DNA of 64,000 nucleotides, from assembly GCA_947631295.1 (NCBI GenBank), contig CANRKU010000003.1, forward strand, positions 4,313-68,312. The letters run 5' to 3'. Positions 40,515-64,000 of this stretch are shown in pieces. The number at the start of each line of letters is the position of its first letter. The stretch's first letter is position 1. The position numbers were made by a program, and so were the translations under genes. The notes beneath the pieces are model-generated. The model was not told where the DNA came from, made no database searches, and saw only the letters and a program-made list of their open reading frames with translations. This DNA comes from an uncultured Bacilli bacterium. GTDB taxonomy: Bacteria > Bacillota_I > Bacilli_A > RF39 > UBA660.

Positions 40515-40529
40515 ATTCCCTCCTGAAAC

Positions 40530-44221: not shown

Positions 44222-44545
44222 TTACTGAATGTATTCATCTTGAAGTTCATAACGTAATTCTTTTACCTTCTCTAAGACTTTTTTTTGTCTATCTTTTTCA
44301 TACTCCGGAATTTTCTTTTTAGGATTACCAAAGCGATTTACATACAATCTTAATGGTTTAATATGATTACTAGTAGATAGTAAAACAGGACATCCATTAC
44401 TAAAATCTTCTGCTGATATTTGCATAATTGCACCATCTACTACTAATTTTGATGTTCGACTAAGAATAATTTTTATTTCACCTTTTGGAAAGCTTCCAAC
44501 ATACAAATTACTATATTTTTTAATAATCATAGTACCCCTCCTCAT
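44222..44545 (-). CDS. Hypothetical small protein
   Basis: 107-aa ORF with a basic C-terminus. Confidence 0.35.
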   Translation of the reverse strand: MRRGTMIIKKYSNLYVGSFPKGEIKIILSRTSKLVVDGAIMQISAEDFSNGCPVLLSTSNHIKPLRLYVNRFGNPKKKIPEYEKDRQKKVLEKVKELRYELQDEYIQ

Positions 44546-44598
44546 TTATTGGGACGTATTATACCACATCTCTATCCAAAAAGCAAGCATTTTCAATT

Positions 44599-45309
44599 TT
44601 ATAAATCACTATGTTGGAAATATTCAAATAATTGTTGACACTTTTCTATATCCATCGCTTCTTTTTTTAAATAAGGATTAACAAGCCCTAAACTTTGATA
44701 TTTTTGATCTCCCATTTTATGATAAGGTAAAAACTCTACTTTTTCTACATTATTAATTTGTTTTAAAAATACTTTCAACCCATCTATATATTCTAAATTA
44801 TCATTTACACCTGGAATAATAACTTGACGAATCCATACTTTGGTATGACTTTGATTGAGAACATCTAAAAAAGTTAAAAACTCATCCATAGATTTTCCAG
44901 TTAAATCTAAATATCCCTCTTTCGTAATATGTTTGATATCTAAAAGAACTAGATCAACATAGGAAAGAATTTCTTGATATTTTCCAACACCAACTCCCGC
45001 AGTATCTAAAGCAATATGAATTTTTTCCTTTTTTAATTTTTGACACACTTCTAATAAAAAATCAATTTGTAGTAAAGGTTCTCCTCCTGAAAAAGTAACG
45101 CCACCTTGATTTCTTTGAAAATAAGGCTTATTACGAATGATTTTTTGAACTAATTCATCACTAGTATAATTTTCTTTTCCTTTTATCCACATTTCAGGAT
45201 TATGACAATATTTGCATCTTAATTGACATCCGCTTAAAAAAACAACAGTACGAATCCCTGGACCATCCACTAATCCAAAAGATTCAATAGAATCTACTGC
45301 ACCTTTCAT
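44599..45309 (-). CDS. pflA: Pyruvate formate-lyase activating enzyme (radical SAM)
   Basis: GCQLRCKYCHNP CxxxCxxC cluster. It sits directly after pflB. Confidence 0.85.
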   Translation of the reverse strand: MKGAVDSIESFGLVDGPGIRTVVFLSGCQLRCKYCHNPEMWIKGKENYTSDELVQKIIRNKPYFQRNQGGVTFSGGEPLLQIDFLLEVCQKLKKEKIHIALDTAGVGVGKYQEILSYVDLVLLDIKHITKEGYLDLTGKSMDEFLTFLDVLNQSHTKVWIRQVIIPGVNDNLEYIDGLKVFLKQINNVEKVEFLPYHKMGDQKYQSLGLVNPYLKKEAMDIEKCQQLFEYFQHSDL

Positions 45310-47537: not shown

Positions 47538-47716
47538 AAAATCCTCCCATTATTTATATTGTATCAATGATTAAAAATAATAAGCAATACTATTTCAAAT
47601 ATTTGACAGTCCATCTTTGACGATTTTGTCAACAGAAAATAGAATAATAAATTTATGAATAAAAACTTAAAAATTTTTTCTTTTTTACATACACTATACT
47701 AGAATGGATGTGAATC

Positions 47717-48421
47717 ATGAATAATTCTGAATATTTAAATGAAAAAAATATTACTTATACAGTAAAAGAAGGGGATACTCTTTATAGTATAGCTAAAAAA
47801 TTTAATACTAGTATTAGTGATTTAATAACACAAAATCATCTCGACAATAATCTACTTGTACCGAATCAAATATTAACAATTCCAAAAAATTCTACTCCAA
47901 TAATAGAACATATTGGTAGTGATATCTGTGATATGGAAATCAAAGATAAAGATCCAATTTATGATACTTATATTGTGAAAAAAAACGATAATTTATATAC
48001 TATCGCCAAAAAATTTAATACAACAGTAGCAAAATTAATATATATCAACAATTTAAAAAATAATTTACTTTCTCTAAATCAAAAAATAAAAGTTCCACAT
48101 CATAGTGCAAATACAATAAACTATATCGTAAAAAAGCAAGACAATTTATATCAAATAGCATCTAATTATAATGTAACTCCTAAACAAATCATGGATTTAA
48201 ATAATCTAACATCAACCTCTTTAACAGTCGGACAGACTTTAAAAATTCCTACGTTTTCCACTAGTGATAGAAATTCTTATGAAATTTATATAGTCAAGAA
48301 AGAAGATAGTCTTTATTCCATTTCTAAAAAATTTAATACAACTGTTGCGATTATAAAAAAAGAAAATCATCTAGTAAACAATCTACTTACAATTGGGCAA
48401 TCCTTAATCATTCCAAAGTAA
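47717..48421 (+). CDS. LysM-repeat protein (4 LysM domains)
   Basis: Four repeats of YTVKEGDTLYSIAKKFNTxxxxLxxxNxLxxNLLxxxQxLxIP. Confidence 0.7.
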   Translation: MNNSEYLNEKNITYTVKEGDTLYSIAKKFNTSISDLITQNHLDNNLLVPNQILTIPKNSTPIIEHIGSDICDMEIKDKDPIYDTYIVKKNDNLYTIAKKFNTTVAKLIYINNLKNNLLSLNQKIKVPHHSANTINYIVKKQDNLYQIASNYNVTPKQIMDLNNLTSTSLTVGQTLKIPTFSTSDRNSYEIYIVKKEDSLYSISKKFNTTVAIIKKENHLVNNLLTIGQSLIIPK

Positions 48422-48446
48422 AAGATACCGAAATGTCTCGGTACCT

Positions 48447-49799
48447 TTATTTTTTTGCTTTTTCAACAATATGTTTCCATTCTATAGGTCCTACTCGACC
48501 TGTTTCATCTAATTGAAATTCTTTTTGAATTTCTTTCACTGCCATTTCCGTTTTAGTATTAAAGCATCCTATGATATCCACTTGAGGAAATTGATTATTT
48601 TTCTGATAAATATCATATAAAAATTCCTGTAAAGTAGTGACCTCATCACCTTTCATTCCCAGTGATAAAGAAATTCCCGGATAGATTTCATCTTTATGAG
48701 AGAGAGCTTCCTTTGGTAAATGGGATAATACCTCAAAGTAAATCTCTTTTAGTTTATTCCATGTTGTGATATCAACAATTCCATTAGCTGGTAAACCATA
48801 TTTTTTCTGAAAAGCAATAACCATTTTTTCTGTATTACTATCATAAATAGAATCAACGGATAAAAAAGGAATATCATTATCAAAATAAGCAATGACACGA
48901 ATAAAATAATGTAAACCTTGTACATGAGGTCCTTGGTCATTTTTTTTAAGTTCCAAACCAAATTTCATTTCAATATCTTCTTGTAATAACCCTTCCGTAT
49001 AAATATCTGATAATTTTTTAACCGCATTATATAAATATTTTATCTTATACCATGTTGCTTTATCTATCATCCCTGTGATTTCCAAATCAAATATATTTTG
49101 AAATTTTTGGATTGCTTGTTCCAAAACGACATCATAAAATTCATGAATCGTATCAAATTCTGGAATAGCTGGATAATTTACATGAATACGATTTAACTGT
49201 CTTTTAATAATACGAACATGTTCTGATACATCCCCTACTTTTAAAGGAACACCAGGATAAGAAGTAATAGGATCCGCTACTTCGGCATTTTGAATAATAG
49301 ATATATCGTTTCCATAATAATATTTTAAAATTTCAGTAGGTGTTTTACCCTGCTCAGCAAGATGAACAGTACCCCACTGTGACAATCCCTCACATAAAGT
49401 TTTTTTACCATCACAATAATTAGTAAAATAAGGCTCAATATGATTACCTTTGACAACATAATTATTAAAAATTTCATCCACAATTTTAATAATATTATCA
49501 AATAAATCTCTTCCCTTCACATAAGTCTGATCATAATTAGGAAGAGAAGTAATATCAAAAGAATATCCTTTACTTGGATAATATTCATTATAAATACGAT
49601 TTAGTGAAAAAGAGGTAATTGCTAAAATATTACTACGAAGAGCAGCATCAGGCCAGCTAGGATAAAGTTCACTACAAGCAACATTTTTAATATAATCAAT
49701 AAAAGAAATCGTAATTTCTTCACTAGCCTCATCGGGATTTCCTAAGTGAACAATAATGGTAGTTGGAATAATAGGTCTTCCGATTTGTCTATCTTCCAT
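48447..49799 (-). CDS. Peptidoglycan-binding-domain protein, possibly a SleC-like spore cortex-lytic enzyme
   Basis: Three PG_binding_1-like repeats at the C-terminus (AIQKFQNIFDLEITGMIDKATWYKI; AFQKKYGLPANGIVDITTWNKL; AVKEIQKEFQLDETGRVGPIEWKHI). A separate N-terminal domain. Confidence 0.4.
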   Translation of the reverse strand: MEDRQIGRPIIPTTIIVHLGNPDEASEEITISFIDYIKNVACSELYPSWPDAALRSNILAITSFSLNRIYNEYYPSKGYSFDITSLPNYDQTYVKGRDLFDNIIKIVDEIFNNYVVKGNHIEPYFTNYCDGKKTLCEGLSQWGTVHLAEQGKTPTEILKYYYGNDISIIQNAEVADPITSYPGVPLKVGDVSEHVRIIKRQLNRIHVNYPAIPEFDTIHEFYDVVLEQAIQKFQNIFDLEITGMIDKATWYKIKYLYNAVKKLSDIYTEGLLQEDIEMKFGLELKKNDQGPHVQGLHYFIRVIAYFDNDIPFLSVDSIYDSNTEKMVIAFQKKYGLPANGIVDITTWNKLKEIYFEVLSHLPKEALSHKDEIYPGISLSLGMKGDEVTTLQEFLYDIYQKNNQFPQVDIIGCFNTKTEMAVKEIQKEFQLDETGRVGPIEWKHIVEKAKK

Positions 49800-50339
49800 T
49801 TATAAATTCCCTTCACTTACATATTCATTTGGTATCATTTCAATTTTTTGAATAGATTTAATTCCATCATAAACATATACTTTTTCTATTTGCACAGTTT
49901 GATAATTAGGATGAGTAGCTTCAATTTGATAAATAGATGCTCCATTTAAGTAATCTTGACGCCTAACAGGTGTTGGTAAAAGAATAGAATCAATTAATCC
50001 ACTTTCTTCGGTATAACCAGAATAAAAAATTTTCTTTTCCTGATTAAATATTTTGTAAACTTGAATTTTGACATGAGAAATAGGAAAATAAGTATTTCCA
50101 ATCAAAGTTTGGACTTTCAATTTGCCAGTTCCCAAATTGGTATTTAAAAATTCCTGATAAGTCATCTCCTCATAGAAAGAATTAGAATTTTGACTAATAG
50201 TTAAAATTTGTCCTGGTAAAATTAAGGTATTCGTTAATTGATTTAATTCCATTAATTGTAGTACTGTTGTCTGATACTGTTTAGCAATACTATATAAAGT
50301 TTCTCCTTTTAAAACAGTATGGGTTACATTTTCTCTCAT
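49800..50339 (-). CDS. LysM-domain protein
   Basis: N-terminal LysM (HTVLKGETLYSIAKQYQTTVLQLMELNQL). 179 aa. Confidence 0.5.
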   Translation of the reverse strand: MRENVTHTVLKGETLYSIAKQYQTTVLQLMELNQLTNTLILPGQILTISQNSNSFYEEMTYQEFLNTNLGTGKLKVQTLIGNTYFPISHVKIQVYKIFNQEKKIFYSGYTEESGLIDSILLPTPVRRQDYLNGASIYQIEATHPNYQTVQIEKVYVYDGIKSIQKIEMIPNEYVSEGNL

Positions 50340-50449
50340 AAAATCACCTATTACATCGTATGAATGAGAAAAAAAATAGTGCGTAATGAAAACATATTAT
50401 TTCCTTTTTGTACTTTTTACATATATTATGTTAGAAAGGATAGAAGAAA

Positions 50450-51586
50450 ATGTTTTGTGATAATAATAAAAATAAGAAAGACTATCTTTCTCTATCAAAT
50501 GGATGTTATTTAATGGGACCAACAGGACCTACTGGACCTCAAGGACCTGCTGGTGGACCTACCGGACCTCAAGGAATAACGGGACCTACTGGACCAACAG
50601 GACCTACGGGTGAAACTGGACCAACTGGACCTACTGGACCTCAAGGAGAAATTGGTACAACTGAAACCATTCAAATTGGTAAAGTTGTGACAACAGATCC
50701 AGGTACACAAGTAGAAATTACAGATCATAAATATGGTTTCGAGCATATTTTTGATTTTTCCATTCCGAAAGGAGAAGATGGAAAAGATGGTATGGATGGA
50801 CAGCAAGGCGAAATAGGACCAACAGGGCCTACTGGACCAACGGGTGCTCCAGGTACTAGTGTTACTATCTTAGGTTCATATGACAGTATCGATGAATTAG
50901 AAAAAGAACATGAAACAGGTGAGCCAGGAGATTCTTATTTAGTAGGTGACAATTTATACGTTTGGTCAAATACAGAAAACACTTGGAAAGATGTTGGAAG
51001 AATTAGAGGACCACAGGGAATACCTGGTCCACAAGGAAATCCAGGACTTCCTGGAGAAATAGGACCTCAAGGAAAAGAAGGACCTACAGGTCCACCAGGA
51101 CCATTAGAAATTCCAAATGGCTATTTTGTATCTTTCAATAACAGTTATCCCGTTGGCGGAGTAAAAGTAGAATCCAATGCCAGAATACCTATTAGTCTAA
51201 AAGCAATGGATAATACTGGAATATATACCTTAGAGCAAAACGAATACTATATTCAATTTGATAAAGAAGGTGTCTACCAAATTACTTTTATCGTATCTGC
51301 TTATTGTAAATTTGATGAAAATGATACAGATGTCATTGCGATTGGTTTCAAGCAAGAAAACTCAGATATTGTTTATGCCGGTTCTAGTATTTGGAATGTA
51401 GCACATACTTCCGAAAAAATAATTGGTCAAGGAATGTTTGTAGTAGCAAGTACGGATGAAAAGTGGGAATTAGTTAATCTAAGTAAATCACCTATTTATT
51501 TAAATTCTCCAAGTATTGATGATATTACCTCGGATTCTTATTATGTAAATGCTCCAGTAAACATTATTATTCAATATTTAGGTTAA
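50450..51586 (+). CDS. BclA-like collagen-like (GxT triple-helix repeat) exosporium-type glycoprotein, apparently intact
   Basis: N-terminal [17 protein letters not shown], long G-P-T/G-P-Q repeat tracts in two blocks, and a non-collagenous C-terminal domain of about 150 aa. Confidence 0.75.
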
Positions 51587-51657
51587 AAATGACTATGTGT
51601 TTATAATTACTCCTTTTAAAAATAGAACATATATTATGAATGAAAGGAGGAAAAATT

Positions 51658-51816
51658 ATGTGTGGAGCTAATAACTTTCCCAATTTAGGAAGTGGATGTT
51701 ATCTTCTTGGACCCACTGGACCTATCGGACCTACTGGGCCTACTGGACTAACTGGACCTACCGGAGAAACGGGACCTATTGGACCTACTCATGCCCGTAA
51801 AAGTGAAAGTAATTAA
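51658..51816 (+). pseudogene. 5' fragment of a second BclA-like collagen gene, truncated by the inserted element
   Basis: [44 protein letters not shown], then non-collagen junk (HARKSESN*). The N-terminus is paralogous to the upstream gene. Confidence 0.55.
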
Positions 51817-51879
51817 AAAGTGCTTAAAATACTGATGAAACACTTTTAATATACTAATAATTTTTAAAGGAGTGAGATT

Positions 51880-52119
51880 ATGACAAAAAAGGTTGAAGAT
51901 TTATTACAATATGATGAGTTTAGAAAAATGAGATTTACTTTAACTAAAGAAATGCAAGGAATAATTATAAAATTGTTAGTATTACAACAAATGATAAATA
52001 AAGATGAAGAATTAAGTTATAAAGAATTAAAGTTATTAAAAAAAGAAAAAAATAAACTATTAGAAAATTTTGTAAAAGAGTTTCAAGCATACAACATTGA
52101 CAAAATAGCAATTTGTTAA
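51880..52119 (+). CDS. Hypothetical small protein on the element
   Basis: 79-aa ORF with an SD (aaaggagtgag). Confidence 0.3.
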   Translation: MTKKVEDLLQYDEFRKMRFTLTKEMQGIIIKLLVLQQMINKDEELSYKELKLLKKEKNKLLENFVKEFQAYNIDKIAIC

Positions 52120-52129
52120 AATAATTGCA

Positions 52130-52816
52130 TTATTTTTTTTCTTTGTGTCGAGGTTTATCTAAATCTTCTAAAACTTGTTTTTTCAAAAAATCTGTATCAA
52201 TGATATTTTCTATTCCGTTTATACTTTCTAAATTATAAATAACTGAACTAATTTCATCATAAGTTTCTTGTAATGATAAATCAAAAGTTCCCATACTAAA
52301 TAATCTATTTTTATCATAGTATCTTGTATAAAAAGTATCACCTGTTTTATCATGTTTTGCTTCAAAATAATGATATTCATTTTTATTTATTTTAAAAGTT
52401 ATAACTCTTTCTTCTGTTATGTTTTCTTTTTGTGTTTGCTCATCAAAATCTATTTTAGTTCTTTCATCTATCATTAGTTCTTCATCGGTAAATAAAATAT
52501 TAAAAAGACGATTACCAATTGATATAACATAATATGTTCCCTTATTAATTTTTTGCTTTTTACTATTCCATATTACACAATTACATAATAAATTTAATAT
52601 ATGTAATTCATCATTAGATTCCATTTTTTTTACATAATCACCAATAGAAATATAATCACTAATTGCTATTTTAAAAATATTATTCTCACTTGATATAGTT
52701 ATTTCAAAATCACTTTGTTTTGCAATAGGTTTGCTTTCAGTAGTTTCATTAGTTGTAGCGTAATTTTGTAATTGTTTTTTCTTTGCTTTTAATTTATCAA
52801 TTAGTTCACTAAGCAT
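52130..52816 (-). CDS. Hypothetical protein on the element
   Basis: 228-aa ORF, no motifs recognised. Confidence 0.4.
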   Translation of the reverse strand: MLSELIDKLKAKKKQLQNYATTNETTESKPIAKQSDFEITISSENNIFKIAISDYISIGDYVKKMESNDELHILNLLCNCVIWNSKKQKINKGTYYVISIGNRLFNILFTDEELMIDERTKIDFDEQTQKENITEERVITFKINKNEYHYFEAKHDKTGDTFYTRYYDKNRLFSMGTFDLSLQETYDEISSVIYNLESINGIENIIDTDFLKKQVLEDLDKPRHKEKK

Positions 52817-53285
52817 TGTATTTCACTCCTTTAAATTTTATAAAGTTATCAAGTTGGCAATTATAATAACACAAAATGCTCTAAAATACAATTTTACCCA
52901 ATTTATAAATTTATATATTGACGAAAGTGTTTTTTTCCTAAATTAGTATTATGCTCAAAAATTACATTCATGCCCTAAATTGTAATTGAAAAAATAATTT
53001 GTCGTTCAAGAATTTATGTTTTTAAATTGGTATTCTTAAGGTACTTGAACAAGAAAGGAAAGAAAAAACTAATTCGGCATAAGTTTAAATAGGTGAACTT
53101 ATGAAAATTACAAGTACATTTGATGAAAATGGCAAAACTTTACAAGAGATTATAGAACAATTTTTAATCATATTTTATAACGAAAATATTACTGAAAAAC
53201 AAGCATAAAATCGGCAAAAACCTTTAAAAAAATAAGAAAACATGCAATTAAAAATGTTTTGTCAGTAAGTGAAAGGATTTAAATT

Positions 53286-54869
53286 ATGAATACTAATAAA
53301 ATATACAAAGTTGGTATATATTTAAGATTATCTCGTGATGATGAGAAAGATGATGAAAGTCAAAGTATAAGTAATCAAAGAGATTATATAATGAATTATA
53401 TTATACGAAATAATTTAACGCTTATTGATGAGTATATTGATGATGGTGTAAGTGGTACAGAGTTTGATAGAAACGGTTGGAATAGACTAATTGAAGATAT
53501 AGAACGTGATCGAATTAATATGGTTATTACAAAAGATACAAGTCGTTTAGGTCGTAATATATCACAAAGTTTATACTATTCAACTGAATATTTCCAAGAA
53601 AAGAATGTAAGATATATTGCATTAACTGACGGAATAGATACATTTGATAAATTACAAAATACTGATATGTTAATGTTTAAAGCATTTTATAATGAAATGT
53701 ATGTAAAAGATATATCTACTAAAATTAAAGCAACTTTAAACTCTCAAAAAAGAAATGGCAAGTTTATGGGTGGCATAGCACCTTATGGATATGAAAGAAA
53801 CCTACCTTATGATAAGCACGAACTTGTTATAAATGAAGAACAAGCCGAAATCGTAAGAAGAATATATGATTTATTTATAAATGGTATGGGAGTTAAAAAA
53901 ATTGCTAACTTACTAACTGATGAAAATGTACCTATACCAAGCATACAAAAAAATCTTAATCGTGGTGTTAAATCAAGTATATATGGAATATGGCAAGAAA
54001 CAACCATAAGTGATATACTTACAAACCCTACTTATAAGGGAGATTTAACACAATGTCGTGAGTATAAAGTTAGTTATAAATCAAAGAAAAGAAGAAAAAA
54101 TGATAAAAAAAATTGGATTATAGCCAAAGGAGCTTGTCCCGCTATCATTGATGAAGAAACTTTTAATATCGTTCAAGATATGTACTCTAAAAATAAAAAT
54201 AGAACTGATAACTCACTAGAATATCTTTTAAGGGGCTTTTTAGTTTGTAAAGAGTGTGGGCATACCATTTCAATAGGTCAAGCGAAATGGTCTTGTAATG
54301 GAGTTAAGAAAATAAAAAACATTTGTTATTGCAACTTTTGGAAAAAGTTTTCAAGATATAATGTATGTACTCCCCATAAAATTGATTATAATGAGTTAGA
54401 AACTGAAATATTAAAAGATATTAGAAAGAAATGTAAATCATATTTAAAGACAAGTAATTTTGAAGATTTACTAAAAAACAATGATAAAATGAATAAGATA
54501 CAATTAGATTTAGAAAAACAACTAACTAAAATTAAAAATGATATAAAAGAGCAAACAATTTTTGTTGATAAACTATATAAAGATAAGTTAAAAGGTATAA
54601 TTGATGAAGAAATGTTTAGAAGACAATATAATAACCTAACAACTGAAACATTAAACTTAAAGAAAAAAGCAAACGAAATTGAAACAAAATTATATGCAAT
54701 TAAAAATAAGGTGGCTAATAAAGATAATATGAGATATACAAGCATAATTAAAGAGTTTTTATCTTTAAATAAACCTAGCAAAAAACTTTTATCATCACTA
54801 ATTGACAAAATAGTGATAGATGAAGAACAAAATGTTAATATATGTTATAAAATAAAACCATTATATTAA
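53286..54869 (+). CDS. Large serine recombinase (resolvase catalytic domain, recombinase domain and zinc-ribbon/coiled-coil)
   Basis: N-terminal IYKVGIYLRLSRDDEKDDESQSISNQRDY with the catalytic Ser. Cys cluster CKECGH...CNGVKKIKNICYC. Coiled-coil C-terminus. 527 aa. Confidence 0.85.
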   Translation: MNTNKIYKVGIYLRLSRDDEKDDESQSISNQRDYIMNYIIRNNLTLIDEYIDDGVSGTEFDRNGWNRLIEDIERDRINMVITKDTSRLGRNISQSLYYSTEYFQEKNVRYIALTDGIDTFDKLQNTDMLMFKAFYNEMYVKDISTKIKATLNSQKRNGKFMGGIAPYGYERNLPYDKHELVINEEQAEIVRRIYDLFINGMGVKKIANLLTDENVPIPSIQKNLNRGVKSSIYGIWQETTISDILTNPTYKGDLTQCREYKVSYKSKKRRKNDKKNWIIAKGACPAIIDEETFNIVQDMYSKNKNRTDNSLEYLLRGFLVCKECGHTISIGQAKWSCNGVKKIKNICYCNFWKKFSRYNVCTPHKIDYNELETEILKDIRKKCKSYLKTSNFEDLLKNNDKMNKIQLDLEKQLTKIKNDIKEQTIFVDKLYKDKLKGIIDEEMFRRQYNNLTTETLNLKKKANEIETKLYAIKNKVANKDNMRYTSIIKEFLSLNKPSKKLLSSLIDKIVIDEEQNVNICYKIKPLY

Positions 54870-54921
54870 GCAAAAATGGTTAAAAAATAGTTTACACTTT
54901 CACTTATAGTTGTATGAACCG

Positions 54922-55421
54922 GACCTATTGGACCAACTGGGCCTACTGGAGAAACGGGACCTACTGGACCTACTGGAGTAAATTTAGCTGCATATGGTGG
55001 CTTATACGCTAATACTCAACAAACAGAACCTCTATCAGATACAAGTCCAGTACCAATAGATTTAGGAAATAATATGCCTAGTGCTAGTGTAGAATATACT
55101 CCTGAAAACAGTATTACGATATCAGAAACTGGTGTTTATGAAATTGATTATTATGCAACGATATCAACAGAAGCTCAGGCAAATACAATTACGATGGCTG
55201 TAAGAAATGGTACAGAAAATATACCATCAACTGAAGTTGCCATCACAACAGGAAATAGTAATACTTTTACATATAGTGGTAGTACTATTGTTGATTTAAC
55301 AGAAGGCGATATTATTGATATGGCTGGTACTCCATCAACAGGTTCAGGTAATCTTGTAATTGGAAGTACAACATCAGACAGTGTAGGTGCACTACTTACA
55401 GTTAAAAAAATTAGCGAATAA
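54922..55421 (+). pseudogene. 3' fragment of the interrupted BclA-like gene (collagen repeats plus BclA-type C-terminal domain)
   Basis: [19 protein letters not shown] then VNLAAYGGLYANTQQ... A beta-rich C-terminal domain of about 135 aa, in the same frame as the listed ORF 55074..55421. There is no start codon of its own. Confidence 0.55.
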
Positions 55422-55636
55422 ATAATGGAATCGAAAATAAACTACTTTCATAAATTATCTACAAATTATAGGTTAACATTATGAGTAAATAGGAAGATTT
55501 TTCATATAGTATAATGAGTCAAGTTAATGATTACTCCTTGACCAAAATTATTATTATTATAAAATCTCCCAATAGTGATATAGATATAAAATTCTATATC
55601 ACTTTTATTTGGCATAAAATGTGTTAGAGGTGGTTT

Positions 55637-56722
55637 ATGAAAAAATATAAAGTATGTGTATATGCTATTTGTAAAAATGAAGAACAATTTGTCTCTCGCT
55701 GGGTAGAATCTATGCAAGAAGCTGATGAAATTTACGTCTTAGATACTGGTTCTTCAGATCATACTAGAAAAAAATTAAGAGAGTTAGGAGTTCATGTAAA
55801 AAAGAAAATTATTAAACCATGGCGATTTGATGTTGCTAGAAATGAATCTTTAAAATTATTACCCAAAGATACTGATATTTGCGTTTGTACGGATTTAGAC
55901 GAAGTATTTGTAAAGGGATGGCGTGATAATTTAGAAAAAATATGGGATCAAAATACTACTCGTCTTTCTTATAATTATAATTGGTATTTAGATGAAAATA
56001 ATAATCCAAAGGTTAATTTTTATATTGAAAAAATTCATACATTGGAAGATTACACATGGACGCATCCTGTTCATGAAGTATTAACTTATATAGGAAGAAA
56101 AAAAGAAAGAAAAAAAAGGACTGATGCAATTACATTAAATCATTATCCTGATCGTAACAAATCACGTGGAAGTTATCTACCACTACTAGAATTATCTGTG
56201 CAAGAAGATCCAAATGATGATAGAAATATGCATTATTTAGGAAGAGAATATATGTATTATCAAAAATGGAATGAAGCTATTGATACGCTAATTAAGCATT
56301 TGTCTTTACCACGTGCTGTTTGGAAAGATGAGAGATGTGCATCTATGCGATTTATTGCTAGATGTTATAAAAATTTAAATCGCTATGATGAAGCTAGAAT
56401 GTGGTTAGATAAAGCAATCGAAGAAGCTCCTTATCTAAGAGATCCTTATATTGAAAGAGCATTATTAGAATATCAGTTGGAAAACTGGGAAGCAGTGAAA
56501 AAATATTGTTTGCAAGCATTGGAAATTAATCATCATCAAAAAACATATATTAATGAAGTATTTAGTTGGGATAATACTGTTTATGATATATTATCCATTG
56601 CCTATTATCATTTAGGAGAAATAGAGTTAGCAATCAAAAATGTAGAAATAGCTCTATCGATGGATCTAAATAATGAGAGATTAAAAAAGAATTTAGATAT
56701 TTTATTAAGTTTAAAAAAATAA
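55637..56722 (+). CDS. GT2-family glycosyltransferase fused to TPR repeats
   Basis: N-terminal VCVYAICKNEEQFVSRWVESMQEADEIYVLDTGSSD...CTDLDE (GT-A DxD-like). TPR-like C-terminal helical repeats. Confidence 0.55.
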   Translation: MKKYKVCVYAICKNEEQFVSRWVESMQEADEIYVLDTGSSDHTRKKLRELGVHVKKKIIKPWRFDVARNESLKLLPKDTDICVCTDLDEVFVKGWRDNLEKIWDQNTTRLSYNYNWYLDENNNPKVNFYIEKIHTLEDYTWTHPVHEVLTYIGRKKERKKRTDAITLNHYPDRNKSRGSYLPLLELSVQEDPNDDRNMHYLGREYMYYQKWNEAIDTLIKHLSLPRAVWKDERCASMRFIARCYKNLNRYDEARMWLDKAIEEAPYLRDPYIERALLEYQLENWEAVKKYCLQALEINHHQKTYINEVFSWDNTVYDILSIAYYHLGEIELAIKNVEIALSMDLNNERLKKNLDILLSLKK

Positions 56723-57023
56723 AGATTATTTATGGTACATAATCTTCTTTTTTTGCCTAAATCTAAATATTTAATACCGCACTAATTATGAACTTTACTA
56801 TCTAAAAGTTGAAATCTTAAATTAATGATTTCTTTAATTAACTTTAATCTTACTTTTTCTAATCAATATCTTGGGTAATTTTCTTATTCTTCACATTGTT
56901 TACTCTTTTATTTTTTATATATAATATCAATATTTTCCATTTTCAAGCTTTCCTATTTTTTAAGCTATTATTCTATTTTTTTACAATTTACACTAAATTT
57001 ATAGTAGAATCTATTTTTTGCTC

Positions 57024-57055
57024 TGACAAAATATTTAACCCCCTAGGTATTTTGA
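57024..57055. repeat. 32-bp perfect direct repeat, copy 1 (TGACAAAATATTTAACCCCCTAGGTATTTTGA)
   Basis: Identical to 62420..62451. Similarity extends about 12 bp further upstream (ctattttttgctc vs cctattttgttta). Confidence 0.8.
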
Positions 57056-57288
57056 TAAGTTTATCAAAATCACATAGGAGGTTATTCTTTTATATCAATA
57101 TTCGAAAAATTCGAATAGATTTGTCACTGGTGCGAGTGTCGTAGATATCTACAACTCTTACACAAGTACGAATGATATAAATATCACTCACTAATTAAAT
57201 TATATCATCTTTTTATCAATAAGAAGCATTTATTTTTCATTTAACAAAAAATATTTATTCATTTACTGATAAAATTGATAAATACAAT

Positions 57289-57507
57289 TTAATACAAAAC
57301 ATCTTTTCTAGTATATGGCGAGGTAGTTTCTTCACCAACATTACCATTATCATTTTTATAATATCTTTCACATCTATTACAATATAAAGTTTTACCACTA
57401 GGCATTAAAAATGTAAGTGGTTCATAACAATTAGGACATTTTAATATATTTTTCTTTTTCGTTGCATTTTCTACTGTCTCTTTTTGATTATTATTTAATT
57501 CATTCAT
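57289..57507 (-). CDS. Small zinc-ribbon protein
   Basis: CPNC...CNRC four-Cys ribbon. 72 aa. Confidence 0.4.
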   Translation of the reverse strand: MNELNNNQKETVENATKKKNILKCPNCYEPLTFLMPSGKTLYCNRCERYYKNDNGNVGEETTSPYTRKDVLY

Positions 57508-57525
57508 ATTTATACCTCCTATTTT

Positions 57526-58419
57526 TTAACCATCTATAGAAATGTATGATAGTTCTAATCCATATAATTCAATAGTAATTAAATGATCGTCTAATTTATT
57601 GTTTAAATAGGTTAACTCACCGCAATTAACTTTACTAACATAAATAGTTGGTTTTCCTATTTTCTCAATAATTTCATCTTTTGTATGAGTTTTAACATAC
57701 CATTCATCTTTTTCAAATTTTTCAAATAAATGATTTATTACTCTATCTTTGTTTTTAAAATAATATTCTATTATTTCATCAGCATAATTAGTGAGTTCCT
57801 CTTTTACTTCATCAGCTGTAATAATAACTTTTAAACCTTTATACTTATATTCAAAGCCGTTTTTTGTTTTATAGACAGAATCATCATATAATTCTTTTAT
57901 AAAAGTATTCCAATCATCAGCAATTATATCAAAAGTATCTGCTTCGTGATTATAAATCCCTATTTTATTTGTTTCTCTTTCAAAACATAAAGTATCACCA
58001 AATTCTAATTCAGCAAAAGGTATAAGTTTATCTTTCAATTCAGAATCAAAACTTTGAAATTTTAAAATATAAGTTTTGCTATTGGGATCAATTGAATAGA
58101 AGTATCTAACTAATTTTTCTGTTCCATTTAATAGTCCTAAAATATTTTTTTCAGGTTTTAATGATGGATGTTTTAATAAGTAATCTTTGTATTCATTTAC
58201 AAAAGTATAATTAATTTCTTTTTCAACATTATTAATATATTCTAATATTCCAGAATCTAAGTTTTCTATTTTTTTATCAATACTTTTTAAAATTTCTTCC
58301 GTTTCTTCATTTGACACATTTAATTTTTTTAATTTATCTTGGTCCTTATTCGATAGAGCATCTATTATTTGTCTCACTCTTGGAACTGATTTTGAAAGTT
58401 CTGATTTATTATTTTTCAT
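57526..58419 (-). CDS. Hypothetical protein, possibly SMI1/KNR4 (SUKH)-like
   Basis: 297 aa. The SUKH resemblance is weak (EKEINYTFVNEYKDYLLKH; DDWNTFIKELYDD). Confidence 0.35.
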   Translation of the reverse strand: MKNNKSELSKSVPRVRQIIDALSNKDQDKLKKLNVSNEETEEILKSIDKKIENLDSGILEYINNVEKEINYTFVNEYKDYLLKHPSLKPEKNILGLLNGTEKLVRYFYSIDPNSKTYILKFQSFDSELKDKLIPFAELEFGDTLCFERETNKIGIYNHEADTFDIIADDWNTFIKELYDDSVYKTKNGFEYKYKGLKVIITADEVKEELTNYADEIIEYYFKNKDRVINHLFEKFEKDEWYVKTHTKDEIIEKIGKPTIYVSKVNCGELTYLNNKLDDHLITIELYGLELSYISIDG

Positions 58420-58436
58420 TTTTTCTTCTCCTTATT

Positions 58437-58946
58437 TTATCTAGTATAATTACTAGTAATATTTTTTTCTTCAATAGATTGTTTTAAATCTAATAATTCT
58501 TTTTTCATTTTTAATGTTTTTTTGGTATCTTTGACGGTTGATAATACAAATTTAATTGATTTTGTTGCTAAGATAATTCCCATTAATCCAATCTTATCTA
58601 TAATAAAATTAATTCCATCAAACATTTTTGTATAAACAGCTACCAATACATCACTTTTTGGCAGAGTAGAAACAGTTTGAGTTATATTATCAAAAATATT
58701 TGTTAAATCTTCTGTTCCAAAATTAGATATATTAGAATTTGAGTTTAGCACAATGCTGGCACATAGTAATATAATTGAGCCATTTAAAATTGCCTTTGTT
58801 ATTGCTTTTTGATTGTGCCTTTTATATTCTGTATCAATCTTTTTTATTTTTATAGGTATATTTTCTTCGAAATTATTGTTTTCTAATTGTTTAATTGCAA
58901 GTTCTTCTATTTCTTGTTGTGAGTAATCTTTTAATAAATCATTCAT
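58437..58946 (-). CDS. Hypothetical membrane protein
   Basis: 169 aa with one or two TM helices (AILNGSIILLCASIVL; GLMGIILATKSIKFVL). Confidence 0.35.
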   Translation of the reverse strand: MNDLLKDYSQQEIEELAIKQLENNNFEENIPIKIKKIDTEYKRHNQKAITKAILNGSIILLCASIVLNSNSNISNFGTEDLTNIFDNITQTVSTLPKSDVLVAVYTKMFDGINFIIDKIGLMGIILATKSIKFVLSTVKDTKKTLKMKKELLDLKQSIEEKNITSNYTR

Positions 58947-58947
58947 A

Positions 58948-59169
58948 TTACATATTCTGGCTTTCTTGAAATTTTGTTAATAATAACTGAAGAAATTCAC
59001 CATCATTTATAGTAGTTAACGTATCATTTTCAAGTAAGCATACAGCAACACCAGATATACCATCTTTTGTCACTAAGTAAACGTAATTTTTTCCATCAAT
59101 TTGAATTTGATTGATAACTATATATTCTTTTCCATTGCTTAATGTTAATAAATCACCTTTATTTAACAT
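58948..59169 (-). CDS. Hypothetical small protein
   Basis: 73-aa ORF, translationally coupled to its neighbours. Confidence 0.3.
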   Translation of the reverse strand: MLNKGDLLTLSNGKEYIVINQIQIDGKNYVYLVTKDGISGVAVCLLENDTLTTINDGEFLQLLLTKFQESQNM

Positions 59170-59662
59170 ATTTGCCTCCTTCTAATTTTTCATTACTTTG
59201 TTCCAATAATAATTGATTATCTAATTCATCATCATCAACAGAAGAAATAATTTCATAATCCTTTACTTCAATTATTCCCATTAATTCATCTTGTTTTGTT
59301 TTTAAATTTTCTAACTTATTTTCTAATGATTTTTTTCTTATTTTATAACTAAAGGAATTCCCTAAATGTAAAGAACTTGATAATGCAGAAATTGCAGCTC
59401 CTATGGGTCCTATCATTTCGATAGCTGAATCAGCAAAAGTTGGAGGATTGCTAGCTGTCAAATTACATATATAAGTTGCTAATGCAATTCCCAATGCTAG
59501 TACACCATCTTTAATTGCTTCTTTAACATCTTGTTTTCTATAAGTCTTGTAATTTTTATCTATACTATTTATTCTTAATGAAGTTTCCCAAATTTCTAAC
59601 CTAATTTCATCTTTTTCATTTAAGGAATCCTGATTATTTAAATTAATTCTCTTATTAAACAT
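59159..59662 (-). CDS. Hypothetical membrane protein
   Basis: 167 aa. Central TM/amphipathic region ALGIALATYICNLTASNPP. Confidence 0.35.
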   Translation of the reverse strand: MFNKRINLNNQDSLNEKDEIRLEIWETSLRINSIDKNYKTYRKQDVKEAIKDGVLALGIALATYICNLTASNPPTFADSAIEMIGPIGAAISALSSSLHLGNSFSYKIRKKSLENKLENLKTKQDELMGIIEVKDYEIISSVDDDELDNQLLLEQSNEKLEGGKYVK

Positions 59663-59874
59663 AAATTACTTTCTCCTATAATTGTTTTCTTCAGGTGTAT
59701 AATCATTATAACAATTATCAGAATTTTCTGCTAACGATTCGTCTTTATTTTTTATGATATTCTCATAATCCTGATAATAATTGTCATTATTATTATTTGA
59801 ACTTTGATCTTCATTGATATTCATAGTTGCATCATTAATATAAATATCATAAGCATTGTCATCTTTTTTATCCA

Positions 59875-60933
59875 TTACATCACCCTTCTTCCAGTGTGCT
59901 CAACAGTTTCAATATGTTCATTATCAAGATTATTTGCATCAGTGTTATCACTAAAAATTGCTTCTAAATCTAAAAATTCTGCATTTTCTTTTTTCATTTG
60001 CTCAATTCTTTTTTTAAAAGAATACAATTCTTCTTTTTTAGGATTAATTGAATCTTCTATAAGATGCTCTTGTTCAACTTTTGGGCTTAATGCACTTAAT
60101 TGTTGATTATTTTGATCTAATGCTTGAACACCAATTAATTTGTTTTTTATTATCCTATATTGTTGATGGTTATATTCTACAACTAACTTTTTCCAATCTT
60201 CATATTCTTTAATTACATTTAAAGTTCTAGGATTATTATTAAAATTGGGATTATCTTTTATTACCAAAATATATTTTAAATATTCGCTCATTCTTTCAGT
60301 ATTAGATAATATTTGATTTTTCATTTGTTCTATTTCTTCAGGTGTTTTTTCAGGGATATCCATTTCAACTAAATTAGCAATATATTCTTTTCCGTATTTT
60401 TTATCGGATGTTATATTAGTTTCAGTAATTTGTATTTTTGATGGAACAAACAATATTTCATCTTCAAATCCACCAAGCTCATTTTCAATATTAATCCATG
60501 GTACATTACTATTAATAAATAATACTGCTTTGTCTGTATCATCAGCAATATTGCTTCCTTTGTTAAATGTCCTAGAAAATGTTAAAGTCTGATTTATATT
60601 TGTAGTTGCTGATAAAAATGAACCAGTTGTATTATTCATTGATTCTATTAATGATTGCTTTGTTCCTCTATATAATTGTTTATTAGGCTTTTGACTTCCA
60701 TTTCTTACATATGATTTTATGATAGCAGAATACAAATTTTTAATATCATTCAAAGATTTTTCCATTAAATCTTTAGTCATAAAGGGATAATCTTTTCCAT
60801 TTCGACTATTAATTCTAATTTCACTTTCTATTCCTTCCCTCAATAAAGTATTTATTATTTTAAAGTCATTATCTTGATATCGTTCGATAGAGGATATTTC
60901 ATCACTTGTTAATTGATAATCCATTAGTATCAC
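59875..60933 (-). CDS. Putative mono-ADP-ribosyltransferase (R-S-E class)-like protein
   Basis: Ordered motifs LYRGTK (Arg), SFLSATTN (STS-like) and GGFEDEILF (ExE-like) in the N-terminal 170 aa. 352 aa total. Confidence 0.4.
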   Translation of the reverse strand: MILMDYQLTSDEISSIERYQDNDFKIINTLLREGIESEIRINSRNGKDYPFMTKDLMEKSLNDIKNLYSAIIKSYVRNGSQKPNKQLYRGTKQSLIESMNNTTGSFLSATTNINQTLTFSRTFNKGSNIADDTDKAVLFINSNVPWINIENELGGFEDEILFVPSKIQITETNITSDKKYGKEYIANLVEMDIPEKTPEEIEQMKNQILSNTERMSEYLKYILVIKDNPNFNNNPRTLNVIKEYEDWKKLVVEYNHQQYRIIKNKLIGVQALDQNNQQLSALSPKVEQEHLIEDSINPKKEELYSFKKRIEQMKKENAEFLDLEAIFSDNTDANNLDNEHIETVEHTGRRVM

Positions 60934-60998
60934 TTCCTATTATATTTTACCACAATTTTGTAAATACTTATAGATGCTTTACATATTTTTAATAAACT

Positions 60999-62381
60999 TT
61001 ACAAACTCATTTCAAAATCATCTTTTTCTTTGCCATTATCATGTTCATTAGCAAACTTATAGTCATCTTTAATATCTTCTATTGTTTCATCACCAAATAT
61101 TCCATGTTCATATAGTTCTTTTGAAAAATGCATATAATCTTCTCGATCTTTTTCTTTTCCAAATATTCTTTTCTTGATAAAACTAACCAATCTATCAAAT
61201 AAATTTTCAAAATAATTGATAGTTCTTTTTAATTTAGAGTTATCTTCTTTAAGGTCATGAATTTCATCTTTTTGTTTATCAATCTTCTTCTTTAATGATT
61301 TAACTTTAATATTTAAAGCATCATTATTTTCAGTTAGTATTTTAATTTTTTCTCTATTTTCTTTTAATTCAGTATCTACATCATTTAAAGTAATAGATAA
61401 TTTTTGCATTTTCTTATATTCATCATTAGTAGAATTAACTTGCTGAATAAAATTAACTATTTTATCTTTTTCATCTTGTTTTAAAACATATTTGTCTTTA
61501 TTCGTTATAGTAGTTTTTAAATTATCTATTATTTCTTTAATATCATTAGAATTATTATCTAATTCAAGTGATTTTTTATTGGCTATTTCTAATCTTTCTT
61601 GATTTTTAGATATTTCTTCTTTCATTTCAATATAGCCATCCATATCTTTAACATTTATATCTTTATTTCTACCTTTTTGTTTAGTCTTTAAAACATTATT
61701 TAAGCCATATTCTTTATTAAAACTAGCAATACATAATGCTCTCATTTTATCTTGTAGTTCAATTAATTTTACTTTAGTAAATACATCAGATTTACCAATT
61801 TGTTTAGACATACCATTTTTATTTTTATATTTAATAGGGACTCCTACAATATGCATATGTGGACTAGTTTCATCATAATGAATAATTGCACTAGCAACTT
61901 TAAAATCAGGTATTAAGTTTTCTAAATCTTTAACTTGTTCTTTATAAACATTAGACATTTTATGCTTAAAATTATCATCTTTGGTATCCCAATATTTTTT
62001 ATCTCCAAGTTCAATAATTATTTCACAAGCCAAATCATTTTTAGAATTATCACTAATCTTTTTAAAGTAGTCATCTATTTTTCTATCATCTCTTGTTTGC
62101 TTTGAATTATATTCAAGTCGTGCTTCTTCAAATTCTTCTTTATATAAATTCTTAACATCTTCATAAAGAGAAGTAGTCCCTCTAGCAATTTCAATTAAGT
62201 GCTGATTATCATCATATTTACGATAATTATGTTTATCAACACGAGATAGTTGCCGAGCATTTTGAATTGCATTATTTGACAAAGAAGTTGTTCCACTAGC
62301 ATTAGTTTTTGCTCTTGCTCGTGATACGTTTTTTCTATTTTTATCACTACCTAAATGTAGTGAATAAGCAAGTTCAGACAT
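60999..62381 (-). CDS. MobV/Pre-family mobilization relaxase
   Basis: AIIHYDETSPHMHIVGVP (HxDE...PHxH motif III of Mob_Pre). N-terminal relaxase domain and a long coiled-coil C-terminus. 460 aa. Confidence 0.8.
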   Translation of the reverse strand: MSELAYSLHLGSDKNRKNVSRARAKTNASGTTSLSNNAIQNARQLSRVDKHNYRKYDDNQHLIEIARGTTSLYEDVKNLYKEEFEEARLEYNSKQTRDDRKIDDYFKKISDNSKNDLACEIIIELGDKKYWDTKDDNFKHKMSNVYKEQVKDLENLIPDFKVASAIIHYDETSPHMHIVGVPIKYKNKNGMSKQIGKSDVFTKVKLIELQDKMRALCIASFNKEYGLNNVLKTKQKGRNKDINVKDMDGYIEMKEEISKNQERLEIANKKSLELDNNSNDIKEIIDNLKTTITNKDKYVLKQDEKDKIVNFIQQVNSTNDEYKKMQKLSITLNDVDTELKENREKIKILTENNDALNIKVKSLKKKIDKQKDEIHDLKEDNSKLKRTINYFENLFDRLVSFIKKRIFGKEKDREDYMHFSKELYEHGIFGDETIEDIKDDYKFANEHDNGKEKDDFEMSL

Positions 62382-62419
62382 CTATAAATCACATCCTTTC
62401 TTTAAGCCTATTTTGTTTA

Positions 62420-62451
62420 TGACAAAATATTTAACCCCCTAGGTATTTTGA
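62420..62451. repeat. 32-bp perfect direct repeat, copy 2, 39 bp upstream of the mobV start. A 15-bp palindrome CTAGGGATTCCCTAG follows at 62478..62492
   Basis: Exact match to 57024..57055. Palindrome ctaggga-t-tccctag, 26 bp downstream on the plus strand. Confidence 0.8.
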
Positions 62452-62616
62452 CGCAAGCATCAAAATTACCTTGTGGGCTAGGGATTCCCTAGAACCCTTT
62501 TAAGACTTATTCCATATTGTTTTAAAACTTCGTAATAAAACAAAATTACATAAGTCTTATAAAATGTTATCGCCACTTACAAAATTACTTCATAATTTCA
62601 TAACGTGCCACACATT

Positions 62617-64000
62617 TTATTCTTCTTCATAGAGCAATTCCTTTTTAACAGGTTTAACACCTATTTGGGTAGGAACAGGTTCTTTCATATAGATAACACT
62701 ATCATTGCTCTCATCAGGTATATAATCAAATGCTGAATTAACATCTTCCATTTGAAATTCATCTTTACCACGAATATAAATAATTCCATATCTATATTCT
62801 TTCATTTTTATATCAGGATCTATCTTACAATAATCTTCTAAAGGAAATACTCTAACAATAGCACGATTATCGTGTATAAAGTTGAAATAAAATATTCTAT
62901 CTTCTACATAATAAGTTGCTTCTTCAAAGCCAACATTATAGTATTGTCTTAATCTCATTATGTGTTTTCCAACTTCTTCTTCAGGAAGATAATTACTAAA
63001 TCTTAAATGACCCACTATATTACCAAATAATGCAGGACTTTTAACATCAATATAACCAGCATCAAATAATTCATTACAAGGTTTACAAATTGACTCTCTA
63101 AAATTGACATTATCTACATAGATATAATCATTCATCATACCTAGTTTTATATCATCAACATAATTCATAATTAGGTTTGCTTTTTCTTCTCTTGTGTAAT
63201 CTTTCCAAGTTTTAGTTTTTTCTTTGTATTCTTTTTCTAACTTAACTTTATTGATATAATCAATATCTCTTTTTAGAAGAATGTCCTGTGGAGTAAAGTT
63301 TAGTTCCTCGCTAGTTTCAGTATCATTTAATTCATCTTTTAACTTGTTGATAGCATCTTCAACTATTTTCTTTTCAGCATTATATTCCTTTAAATCAAAT
63401 GCACCCGAAATATATGCTTTTCTAATTCTTTCTAATCTATCATTTTGTTTTTTAATCTCTTTTTCTAGTTCTTCTTTTGGCTCATCAAATTTTTGTTTAA
63501 TCATTGGTAGAAAGAATTGATTAACAACACTATCATATTCAACTAATTCATCAATAAAGTTATTAAAGTATTCTTCAATAGTTTTTTCCTTAATAGTTAT
63601 TTTGCAATCATTACAATAATAGTAATAATAAGCATTTCCATTTTTCTTCGTAGTTGCTTTACCTCCTAAAATACGATTACATTTAGGACAACATAATTTT
63701 TGTAAGAATAAATAAGTTAAAGTCCTTTGATAACTTCTTGAATTTCTTTTCTTTTGTACTTGGCATTCTTCCCATTTATCTTTATCAATAATAGGTTCAA
63801 CTACATTAGAGTAATAAGTAGGATGTTTTGTCCTTTTTCCATGTACAAAATCTCCTTTATAAATTTCATTTTCAAGTATTGCTAGAATAGTAGAATCTCT
63901 CCAATTTGTTTTACCTAATACTTTTTCGCTATTTAAAAGATTACTAATTTTTTGATAAGAATAGCCATTATAATATAAATCAAATATTCTTTCTACAACA
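62617..64000 (-). CDS. Large serine recombinase, C-terminal two-thirds; N-terminus lies beyond the window end
   Basis: The minus-strand frame is open to 64000. Recombinase-domain and zinc-ribbon motifs (CCPKCNRILGG...YYYCNDCK, CKPCNELF) and a coiled-coil C-terminus. The listed 295-aa ORF is only its tail. Confidence 0.8.
   Translation of the reverse strand, partial: VVERIFDLYYNGYSYQKISNLLNSEKVLGKTNWRDSTILAILENEIYKGDFVHGKRTKHPTYYSNVVEPIIDKDKWEECQVQKKRNSRSYQRTLTYLFLQKLCCPKCNRILGGKATTKKNGNAYYYYYCNDCKITIKEKTIEEYFNNFIDELVEYDSVVNQFFLPMIKQKFDEPKEELEKEIKKQNDRLERIRKAYISGAFDLKEYNAEKKIVEDAINKLKDELNDTETSEELNFTPQDILLKRDIDYINKVKLEKEYKEKTKTWKDYTREEKANLIMNYVDDIKLGMMNDYIYVDNVNFRESICKPCNELFDAGYIDVKSPALFGNIVGHLRFSNYLPEEEVGKHIMRLRQYYNVGFEEATYYVEDRIFYFNFIHDNRAIVRVFPLEDYCKIDPDIKMKEYRYGIIYIRGKDEFQMEDVNSAFDYIPDESNDSVIYMKEPVPTQIGVKPVKKELLYEEE

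Follow-up and report, generated by a model that had tools for sequence, protein, structure and literature searches.

Two direct copies of a 32-bp sequence in an uncultured Bacilli chromosome: probable tandem integration of units that share an oriT-type core

Why should two exact copies of a 32-nucleotide sequence lie 5.4 kb apart on the chromosome of an uncultured Bacilli bacterium, one of them directly ahead of a relaxase gene? The question arises in a stretch of 64,000 nucleotides from contig CANRKU010000003.1 (assembly GCA_947631295.1), which as a whole we call the window. A first-pass annotation of the window had noticed the pair around a block of cargo genes and a mobV gene and had offered several readings: duplicated origins of transfer (oriT) or RS_A-like sites, terminal repeats of a nested or tandem element, or a shared operator. 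The explanation that we consider likely is that two site-specifically integrated units stand one behind the other at the 3′ end of a tRNA-Leu(CAA) gene, each with the 32-mer as an oriT-type core. The arrangement is probably of a known kind, tandem accretion of the type described for integrative mobilizable elements (IMEs) and cis-mobilizable elements (CIMEs), rather than a repeat of a new type. Known biology accounts for the repeat itself, but the family of elements that it exposes is less ordinary.

Two units, probably in tandem, at one tRNA-Leu gene

The 32-mer, TGACAAAATATTTAACCCCCTAGGTATTTTGA, is present at 57024–57055 (copy 1) and 62420–62451 (copy 2), on one strand and at a spacing of 5,396 bp; both copies belong to minus-strand units, and the minus strand, which codes for mob, reads TCAAAATACCTAGGGGGTTAAATATTTTGTCA. 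The window holds no third copy with up to three mismatches allowed, and matches were found in 0 of 100 dinucleotide-preserving shuffles, which puts the chance expectation at nil. The similarity continues on both sides of the 32-mer (57011–57084 versus 62408–62480, 79% identity over 76 bp). Copy 2 lies upstream of the mob gene, 38 nt before its ATG, and a 15-bp palindrome, CTAGGGATTCCCTAG, stands at 62478–62492. In all these respects the first-pass annotation, which had reported the exact copies, the weaker similarity around them, the palindrome and the position ahead of a MobV relaxase gene, was borne out.

Perfect identity over 32 bp of AT-rich intergenic DNA, in a sequence at which metagenome contigs often break, might suggest a functionless pair that arose by recent local duplication or as an assembly artefact. 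This possibility is hardly credible. The pair is not an assembly oddity because the same arrangement occurs on an independent metagenome contig (locus L015), which is identical to the window along 18,364 bp; similar sequence was found at three further places. Moreover, a hairpin beside the core has kept its arms in the two window copies, whereas its loop differs at seven of seven positions, and the identical 32-mer recurs across dozens of elements whose neighboring DNA is 60–90% identical and whose relaxases are just 60–87% identical. Because the adjacent sequence has diverged and the same 32-mer is found in otherwise diverged elements, the copies were not recently duplicated, and their identity is, on these comparisons, the result of selection on the site. 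The earlier suggestion of duplicated oriT sites is supported as to the type of site, but not as to a recent duplication.

Copy 2 belongs to an intact element. Read along the minus strand, its order is tRNA-Leu, a small open reading frame (ORF), a recombinase gene, the palindrome with copy 2, mob, a seven-gene cargo operon, and a conserved end of ∼90 bp. The recombinase is a large serine recombinase of which the C-terminal two-thirds lie in the window (62617–64000), the frame being open to the window edge. The complete gene, found in L015, extends to 64536 in window-equivalent coordinates and encodes 639 amino acids with Resolvase and Recombinase domains, similar to XisF/Ccr recombinases; beyond it in L015 come a 90-aa ORF and then the tRNA-Leu(CAA) gene, ∼1.1 kb past the window end. 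The mob gene (60999–62381, minus strand, 460 aa) matches the Mob_Pre family of Pfam (PF01076, E = 4.3e-15; 56.5 bits, cut-off 25.5). MOBV relaxases carry the motifs HxxR and HxDE...PHxH. Here these read H51-N-Y-R54 and H168-Y-D-E...P174-H-M-H177, and both are invariant in an alignment with eight relatives of 71–87% identity.

The ends of this element could be placed from its relatives. In seven of them (L001, L003, L004 and L011–L014), homology to the window ends at 57124–57128 and the flanks are unrelated. The conserved distal end occupies 57128–57214 on the minus strand, and its final motif, GTTGTAGATATCTACGACACTCGCACCA (57155–57128, closing in ...CGACACTCGCACCA), forms the arm on the side of the right attachment site, attR. 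The other end follows directly on the ...CACCA of the tRNA and begins GTGTCGAATCTGTTCGAAC. When the two ends are joined, a short inverted repeat (CGACAC...GTGTCG) appears around GCACCA, as expected for the attP site of a serine recombinase. On this sequence evidence, the element runs from 57128 to ∼65106 (window-equivalent), or ∼8 kb. Because its ends are at 57128 and the tRNA junction, the element does not include copy 1, nor are the repeats its termini, contrary to the suggestion that they bracket a mobile unit as terminal repeats. The element has its own site-specific recombinase, att junctions at a target gene, and a relaxase with an oriT-like site, as an IME does, and none of its ORFs (the recombinase, mob, the seven cargo ORFs and the 90-aa ORF) has a pore-related domain.

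Copy 1 is found 72 bp beyond the distal end of the intact element, within a 123-bp head (57005–57127, minus strand) that consists of a start motif, a hairpin, the core, and ∼19 nt more. This head is 82–90% identical to the first ∼120 bp of mini-elements at eight other loci, compact units of the same family that have neither a mob nor a recombinase gene. Its att-type start motif, GTGACAAATCTATTCGAATTTTTCGAAT (57100–57127, minus strand), differs at five of 28 positions from the family consensus, GTGACGAATCTGTTCGAACTATTCGAAC, which at other loci stands directly after the 3′ end of a tRNA or tmRNA gene. Here the end motif of the intact element abuts it instead, giving a hybrid att-type joint at 57128/57127, and the same end-to-start junction is present at six other loci (L059, L077, L079, L104, L117 and L123). 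The tandem-element option of the first-pass annotation was essentially right.

The head is a truncated or decayed unit, which may derive from a full unit or may never have had a tail. The sequence to the left of 57005 matches none of the fetched loci, and no cargo ORF of a second unit was found. A search for a mob remnant near copy 1 (tblastn of Mob against 56600–57200) gave nothing at E < 0.99; a decayed mob downstream of copy 1 was considered and discarded, the match being only 62% at the nucleotide level and resembling AT-rich noise. In comparison with a CIME, the head stands in tandem with a complete element through a hybrid att site; of the attL and attR flanks, the start motif is present and no end motif is seen in the window, and complete units of this sort are found at other loci.

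A model in which an IME lies in tandem with a decayed partner has been described (PMC5704250). In the version that we favor, the first unit would be the ∼8-kb IME, with copy 2 as its transfer origin, and the second, beginning at 57127 on the minus strand, would be the head of a non-autonomous relative in which copy 1 is the same core. The recombinase would excise the element, the MobV relaxase would bind the hairpin and nick the mob-coding strand, probably at GGGGG/TT, and a single strand would leave through the conjugation pore of a helper element. Non-autonomous relatives would retain the att ends and the core and borrow the recombinase and the relaxase in trans. The two cores would have remained identical through extreme purifying selection across the family. 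Their direct orientation would follow from integration at a tRNA end, by which both units are made to point the same way.

Several observations weigh against this model. The Mob protein is a distant member of its group: it scores 35.7 against the NCBIfam MobV equivalog, for which the cut-off is 100, it is at most 37% identical to plasmid Mobs in PLSDB, and it is remote from characterized relaxases. No distal end of the second unit was found when its motif was sought with up to eight mismatches and all ...CACCA sites in 40000–57200 were inspected; with neither a recognizable distal end nor cargo, this unit may never have been complete. The oriT assignment draws on position, conservation, structure, and analogy; with the nick region of plasmid pMV158, just eight of ten bases are shared. 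Finally, large serine integrases normally recombine attP with attB only. A second unit entering beside a resident one would formally require attP to recombine with an attL- or attR-like site, which the model does not explain.

The core as a candidate origin of transfer

The full oriT-like region (62401–62492, minus strand) contains the palindrome, which on this strand reads CTAGGGAATCCCTAG, a long hairpin in which the 5′ half of the core serves as the right arm, an unpaired TTAAA, and a small hairpin, TATTTTGTC/ACAAAATA. Folded as DNA and compared with shuffled sequences, the region of copy 2 reaches −18.9 kcal/mol (z = −5.0), and copy 1 has z = −4.6. In pairwise comparisons between relatives, the region forms a peak of identity between the recombinase and mob genes.

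Since a scan with a 30-mer favors exact matches, a second sample was drawn through the Mob protein alone. Relatives of Mob were collected by protein search, and 72 loci had at least 120 bp of sequence upstream of mob. The 32-mer was exact in 29 of the 72, had one mismatch in 21, and two mismatches in seven; the center of the core, CTAGGGGGTTA, is retained even where Mob identity is 54–60%. The end of the core lies 35–80 nt upstream of mob, or 250–275 nt in one subgroup, in ∼85 pattern-found and 71 protein-found loci.

Where the arms do vary, they vary together. The pair ATTTTGA/TCAAAAT is replaced by ATCTTGA/TCAAGAT, ATTTTGT/ACAAAAT, or TTTTGG/CCGAAA, with the downstream arm covarying. For the stem upstream of the center, 96.5% of alignment cells are paired, against 36–48% in slid controls, and there are 17 double-changed cells versus 5.0 ± 2.1 in shuffled data (0/500). 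The stem that spans the center gives a weaker signal, with 87.5% of cells paired and a covariation of 0.073 versus 0.046 shuffled (1/500).

These properties bear on whether the 32-mer could be a shared operator or promoter for transcription of mob and cargo, as the first-pass annotation had also suggested, instead of a transfer origin. The two roles can coincide: the promoters of mobM in pMV158 overlap the oriT, where MobM acts as a repressor of its own gene (PMC5863519). In the mini-elements, moreover, the core always precedes the cargo. However, no promoter-like site was detected at copy 2 and a single weak one at copy 1, fewer than in shuffled sequence, and a terminator scan of the copies likewise gave nothing above chance. 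The distance from core to cargo gene is variable in mini-elements, covarying arms around an invariant center fit a structured DNA site, and the site is retained in units that have no regulator gene. A purely regulatory site is for these reasons very improbable. Nor was a known RNA family recognized at the site, no Rfam match being obtained up to E = 1.

It is similarly improbable, if perhaps not to quite the same degree, that the core is not a nick site but an accessory site of the serine recombinase or an origin for single-strand replication after transfer. Such a role would suit the only internal sequence that autonomous and non-autonomous units have in common, and one that is strongly structured. 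But the att junctions are conserved separately, at the ...CACCA ends, and the distance from start motif to core ranges from ∼70 to 430 nt. Moreover, in the autonomous elements the core has a fixed place just upstream of mob, and it resembles the nick region of MOBV systems.

On position, conservation, structure, and analogy with pMV158, the core is probably an oriT, and an oriT-type site, as the first-pass annotation had proposed among its options, is the best reading for both copies. By the same analogy the nick would fall at GGGGG/TT on the minus strand, between G62435 and T62434 in copy 2 and between G57039 and T57038 in copy 1. The palindrome CTAGGGAATCCCTAG behaves differently from the core. 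In an alignment of autonomous elements it shows compensatory variants, e.g. CTAAGGTGTCCTTAG and CTAGGTACTCCTAG, and it is absent from mini-elements. Judged from this distribution, it may serve only the version with recombinase and mob genes, for example as a terminator of the recombinase gene or as an accessory binding site.

The family, its mini-elements, and exchange at the core

The annotation had advised a search for further copies. In an exact scan, the central 30-mer of the core was present in at least 118 species-representative genomes. Among the matches listed, the hosts are nearly all uncultured gut Bacilli, “Tenericutes,” Erysipelotrichaceae, and metagenome-assembled genomes of the Clostridium sp. 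CAG type; about three-quarters of the cores have a serine recombinase gene on one side and mob on the other, about one-quarter have neither nearby, and the pattern-found Mobs are as little as 52% identical to that of the window. The 32-mer is thus a practical marker for finding members of the family. A published description of a serine-recombinase/MobV family at tRNA ends was not found in the one literature collection searched, which is not proof of novelty.

Metagenome contigs often begin or end at or within the core, as do seven of those collected here (L013, L014, L016–L018, L072 and L073). Such breaks are expected where many near-identical copies exist in one community.

The cores without recombinase or mob genes mark the mini-elements, compact units of 0.5–2.8 kb. 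Each begins after a tRNA or tmRNA 3′ end, or after the end motif of the previous unit, and continues with the start motif, the hairpin and core, usually one gene, and an end motif. The gene has its own ribosome-binding site and encodes, e.g., a HAD hydrolase or a protein similar to N-formylglutamate deformylase. Many mini-elements, including those at L027, L040, L042, L049, L050, L061, L082, L117, and L127, also have a conserved terminator-like hairpin, cagtctgaaatatgactgattttt, which lies ahead of the core and ∼30–70 nt past the start motif and possibly blocks read-through from the tRNA or tmRNA gene. The targets of the family are the 3′ ends of tRNA-Leu(CAA), tRNA-Leu(TAG), tRNA-Thr, tRNA-Gly, tRNA-Arg, and tmRNA genes, and every insertion examined is either at such a 3′ end or at the end of a previous unit.

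Movement of these small units is evident from their distribution. One unit of 1.16 kb is present in five species at 97–99% identity, at three different targets (tRNA-Leu(CAA), tRNA-Leu(TAG) and tmRNA) and between flanks without detectable similarity. Judging by such comparisons, mini-elements spread horizontally. Units without recombinase and relaxase genes have recently moved between species and therefore appear to be mobilized in trans. If this is confirmed, few integrative units that travel by conjugation would be smaller, and the mini-elements would illustrate the spread of single genes in organisms that are not yet cultured.

Could the two cores in the window also be a working pair of oriT/RS_A-like sites, between which a Mob/Pre relaxase excises the 5,396-bp mob–cargo segment, or transfers and recircularizes it? 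The 32-mers would in that case mark the limits of a mobile unit defined by the relaxase. The layout is that of a substrate, with direct repeats and mob in between, and both copies retain core and hairpin. There is precedent as well: in Bacillus, a relaxase excises its own chromosomal Mob cassette, which has a direct 24-bp oriT core on either side, and the Mob proteins of pE194 and pT181 recombine oriT-type sites (PMC4902927). Against this, two cores occur together in just three of 212 other loci (8–13 kb fetched for each), always in direct orientation, so that the pair is not a feature of the family. A circle junction or the reciprocal deletion was seen in no fetched contig, although contigs break at the core, and locus L002, which corresponds to 57139–62685, is a linear fragment. 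Finally, the recombinase-type ends already account for the mobility of the element. We regard a functional pair at this locus as rather doubtful.

Two further observations concern how modules are combined in the family. At L098, the end of a tRNA-Leu(TAG) gene (2175–2259) is followed by a start motif, a core, and a mob whose product is 84% identical to that of the window, with no serine recombinase gene; this unit is an intermediate form that lacks a recombinase and bears a relaxase. Elsewhere, the identities of recombinase and Mob are uncoupled (e.g. L028, L041, L108 and L109), a recombinase of ∼82% identity being paired with a Mob of 84%, 63%, or 68%. These sequence identities point to exchange of modules between the recombinase and mob genes, near the core. 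The identity profile against L108 falls from ∼96% to ∼87% near the core, which is suggestive but not decisive for a breakpoint. Both the layout of L098 and the uncoupling fit exchanges at or near the core, and they count in favor of the working pair considered above.

From here a broader proposal can be made, which we offer tentatively, as possible but not probable: that beyond its role in transfer the core is where the members of a cassette-like system of gut Bacilli exchange parts. Autonomous elements and single-gene mini-elements would pile up at tRNA and tmRNA 3′ ends, and the relaxase would recombine, or terminate, between cores in the resulting tandem arrays. A strand nicked at copy 2 of the window and terminated at copy 1 would form a recombinase-less circle of 5,396 nt, with mob, the cargo operon, and, at 57128/57127, a restored junction that resembles attP. 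Relaxase-driven shuffling of modules would then be a regular part of the life cycle of the family, and mini-elements would hitchhike twice, on a recombinase and on a relaxase supplied in trans, in addition to using the conjugation pore of a helper.

A separate array, at positions 1–11400 of L005/L006, brings related and unrelated mobilizable units together. Within ∼11 kb it has three Mob_Pre genes, of which one is of a different type and oppositely oriented, together with a fragmented gene for a serine recombinase, and it adjoins the genes for leucyl- and arginyl-tRNA synthetases (LeuRS/ArgRS).

The cargo of the intact element (57289–60933, minus strand) comprises a 352-aa protein, four small proteins, a protein of the SUKH/SMI1-KNR4 immunity type (57526–58419), and a zinc-ribbon protein (57289–57507). 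The same cargo is present in L001 and L002, and different cargo within the same ends in L003, L004, and L011–L014. The 352-aa protein gave nothing convincing in Pfam, NCBIfam, and PDB sequence searches; an initial impression of ADP-ribosyltransferase-like motifs found no support from any tool and was dropped. The operon places this protein and small membrane-like proteins together with the SUKH/SMI1-KNR4 protein, and a SUKH protein also occurs in the different cargo of L012–L014. The composition hints at a cargo of toxin-immunity type, though no toxin family was matched.

Many Mob-bearing contigs are ∼5.3–5.6 kb long, and this raised the idea of a small plasmid, integrated or circular. It was rejected: L002 is linear, L003 and L004 carry other cargo, and the contigs break at the repeats. 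Close relatives of 56500–63600 were not found by megablast among plasmids and phages, nor was the exact 32-mer in a scan of viral contigs. The window as a whole is chromosomal DNA of a low-GC Firmicute, with genes for pyruvate formate-lyase, LysM proteins, and collagen-like exosporium proteins.

One of the collagen-repeat genes, similar to bclA, is apparently split (51658–55421). Its N-terminal piece (51658–∼51790, MCGANN...GPTGPIGPT) and its C-terminal piece (∼54915–55421, with a BclA_C domain) are separated by ∼3.1 kb that contain a gene for a 527-aa serine recombinase (53286–54869) and two small ORFs. From its sequence, the interruption resembles the gene-intervening elements of “skin” type known from sporulation.

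Relation to known systems

The closest model for the core is the oriT of pMV158, which with its relaxase MobM is the MOBV1 prototype. This oriT lies just upstream of mobM, has the coding strand transferred, and contains three overlapping inverted repeats (IRs), of which IR1 precedes the nick by 8 nt, IR3 ends at it, and IR2 spans it (PMC5863519). The sequence contacted by MobM is AAGtaTAGTGTG, and the cut, TGTG/TTATAC, is made in the mob-coding strand (PMC5863519). The core described here is likewise just upstream of mob on the coding strand, beside a relaxase with HxxR and HxDE...PHxH motifs. A short hairpin, ATTTTGAT...GTCAAAAT, can be extended to CCC...GGGGG and would then end at GGGGG/TT, and a repeat, CAAAATA...TATTTTG, spans the presumed nick point. 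The upstream and the center-spanning stems that covary would be the counterparts of IR1 and IR2, respectively, and the nick regions, TAGGGGG/TTA here and TAGTGTG/TTA in pMV158, agree by eye at the eight of ten bases mentioned above. The analogy is not exact because our element is integrative and pMV158 is a rolling-circle plasmid, the relaxase is distant, and the nick was mapped in pMV158 but is predicted here.

In gene content, the element resembles the mobilizable transposons Tn4451/Tn4453 of Clostridium, which have the serine recombinase TnpX and the Mob/Pre relaxase TnpZ with an RS_A site upstream. These too are small elements with one large serine recombinase, one MobV-type relaxase, a site upstream of its gene, and no genes for a conjugation pore. 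The insertion of Tn4451 is of low specificity, at GA-dinucleotide sites (PMC5704250). Where the Tn4451 family takes GA-containing sites that resemble the circle joint, the present family inserts at ...CACCA 3′ ends of tRNA and tmRNA genes.

With respect to recombination between oriT sites, as known for Mob02281 of pBMB0228, for Pre and RS_A of pT181 and pE194, and for TrwC and MobA, the likeness is that direct cores flank a chromosomal mob gene and cargo, the layout with which Mob-driven excision has been studied in experiments. The difference is that here the layout comes from tandem integration and the fetched contigs hold no recombination product.

The tandem itself is best compared with ICESt1/ICESt3 and the accretion of IMEs and CIMEs in streptococci, where, as here, one tRNA-end target is used, the units have the same orientation, a hybrid att site lies between them, and one unit is complete and the other without genes for recombination and transfer. 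Those systems use tyrosine integrases, whereas the family here uses a serine recombinase and the partner retains an oriT-like site; moreover, the partner in the window is just a 123-bp head, with no distal att site there.

Finally, a recent survey described iOriTs, att-delimited islands of more than 2 kb that have an oriT only, in six nosocomial species (Ares-Arroyo et al. 2026, preprint 10.64898/2026.01.13.699239). Like these, the mini-elements are integrated and widespread, have an oriT-like site but no relaxase or pore genes, and are related to their putative helpers mainly at that site. They differ in being 0.5–2.8 kb long with usually one gene, in also lacking an integrase, and in residing in uncultured gut Bacilli. 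The mini-elements of this family, whose core is repeated in the window, thus combine features of CIMEs and of iOriTs.

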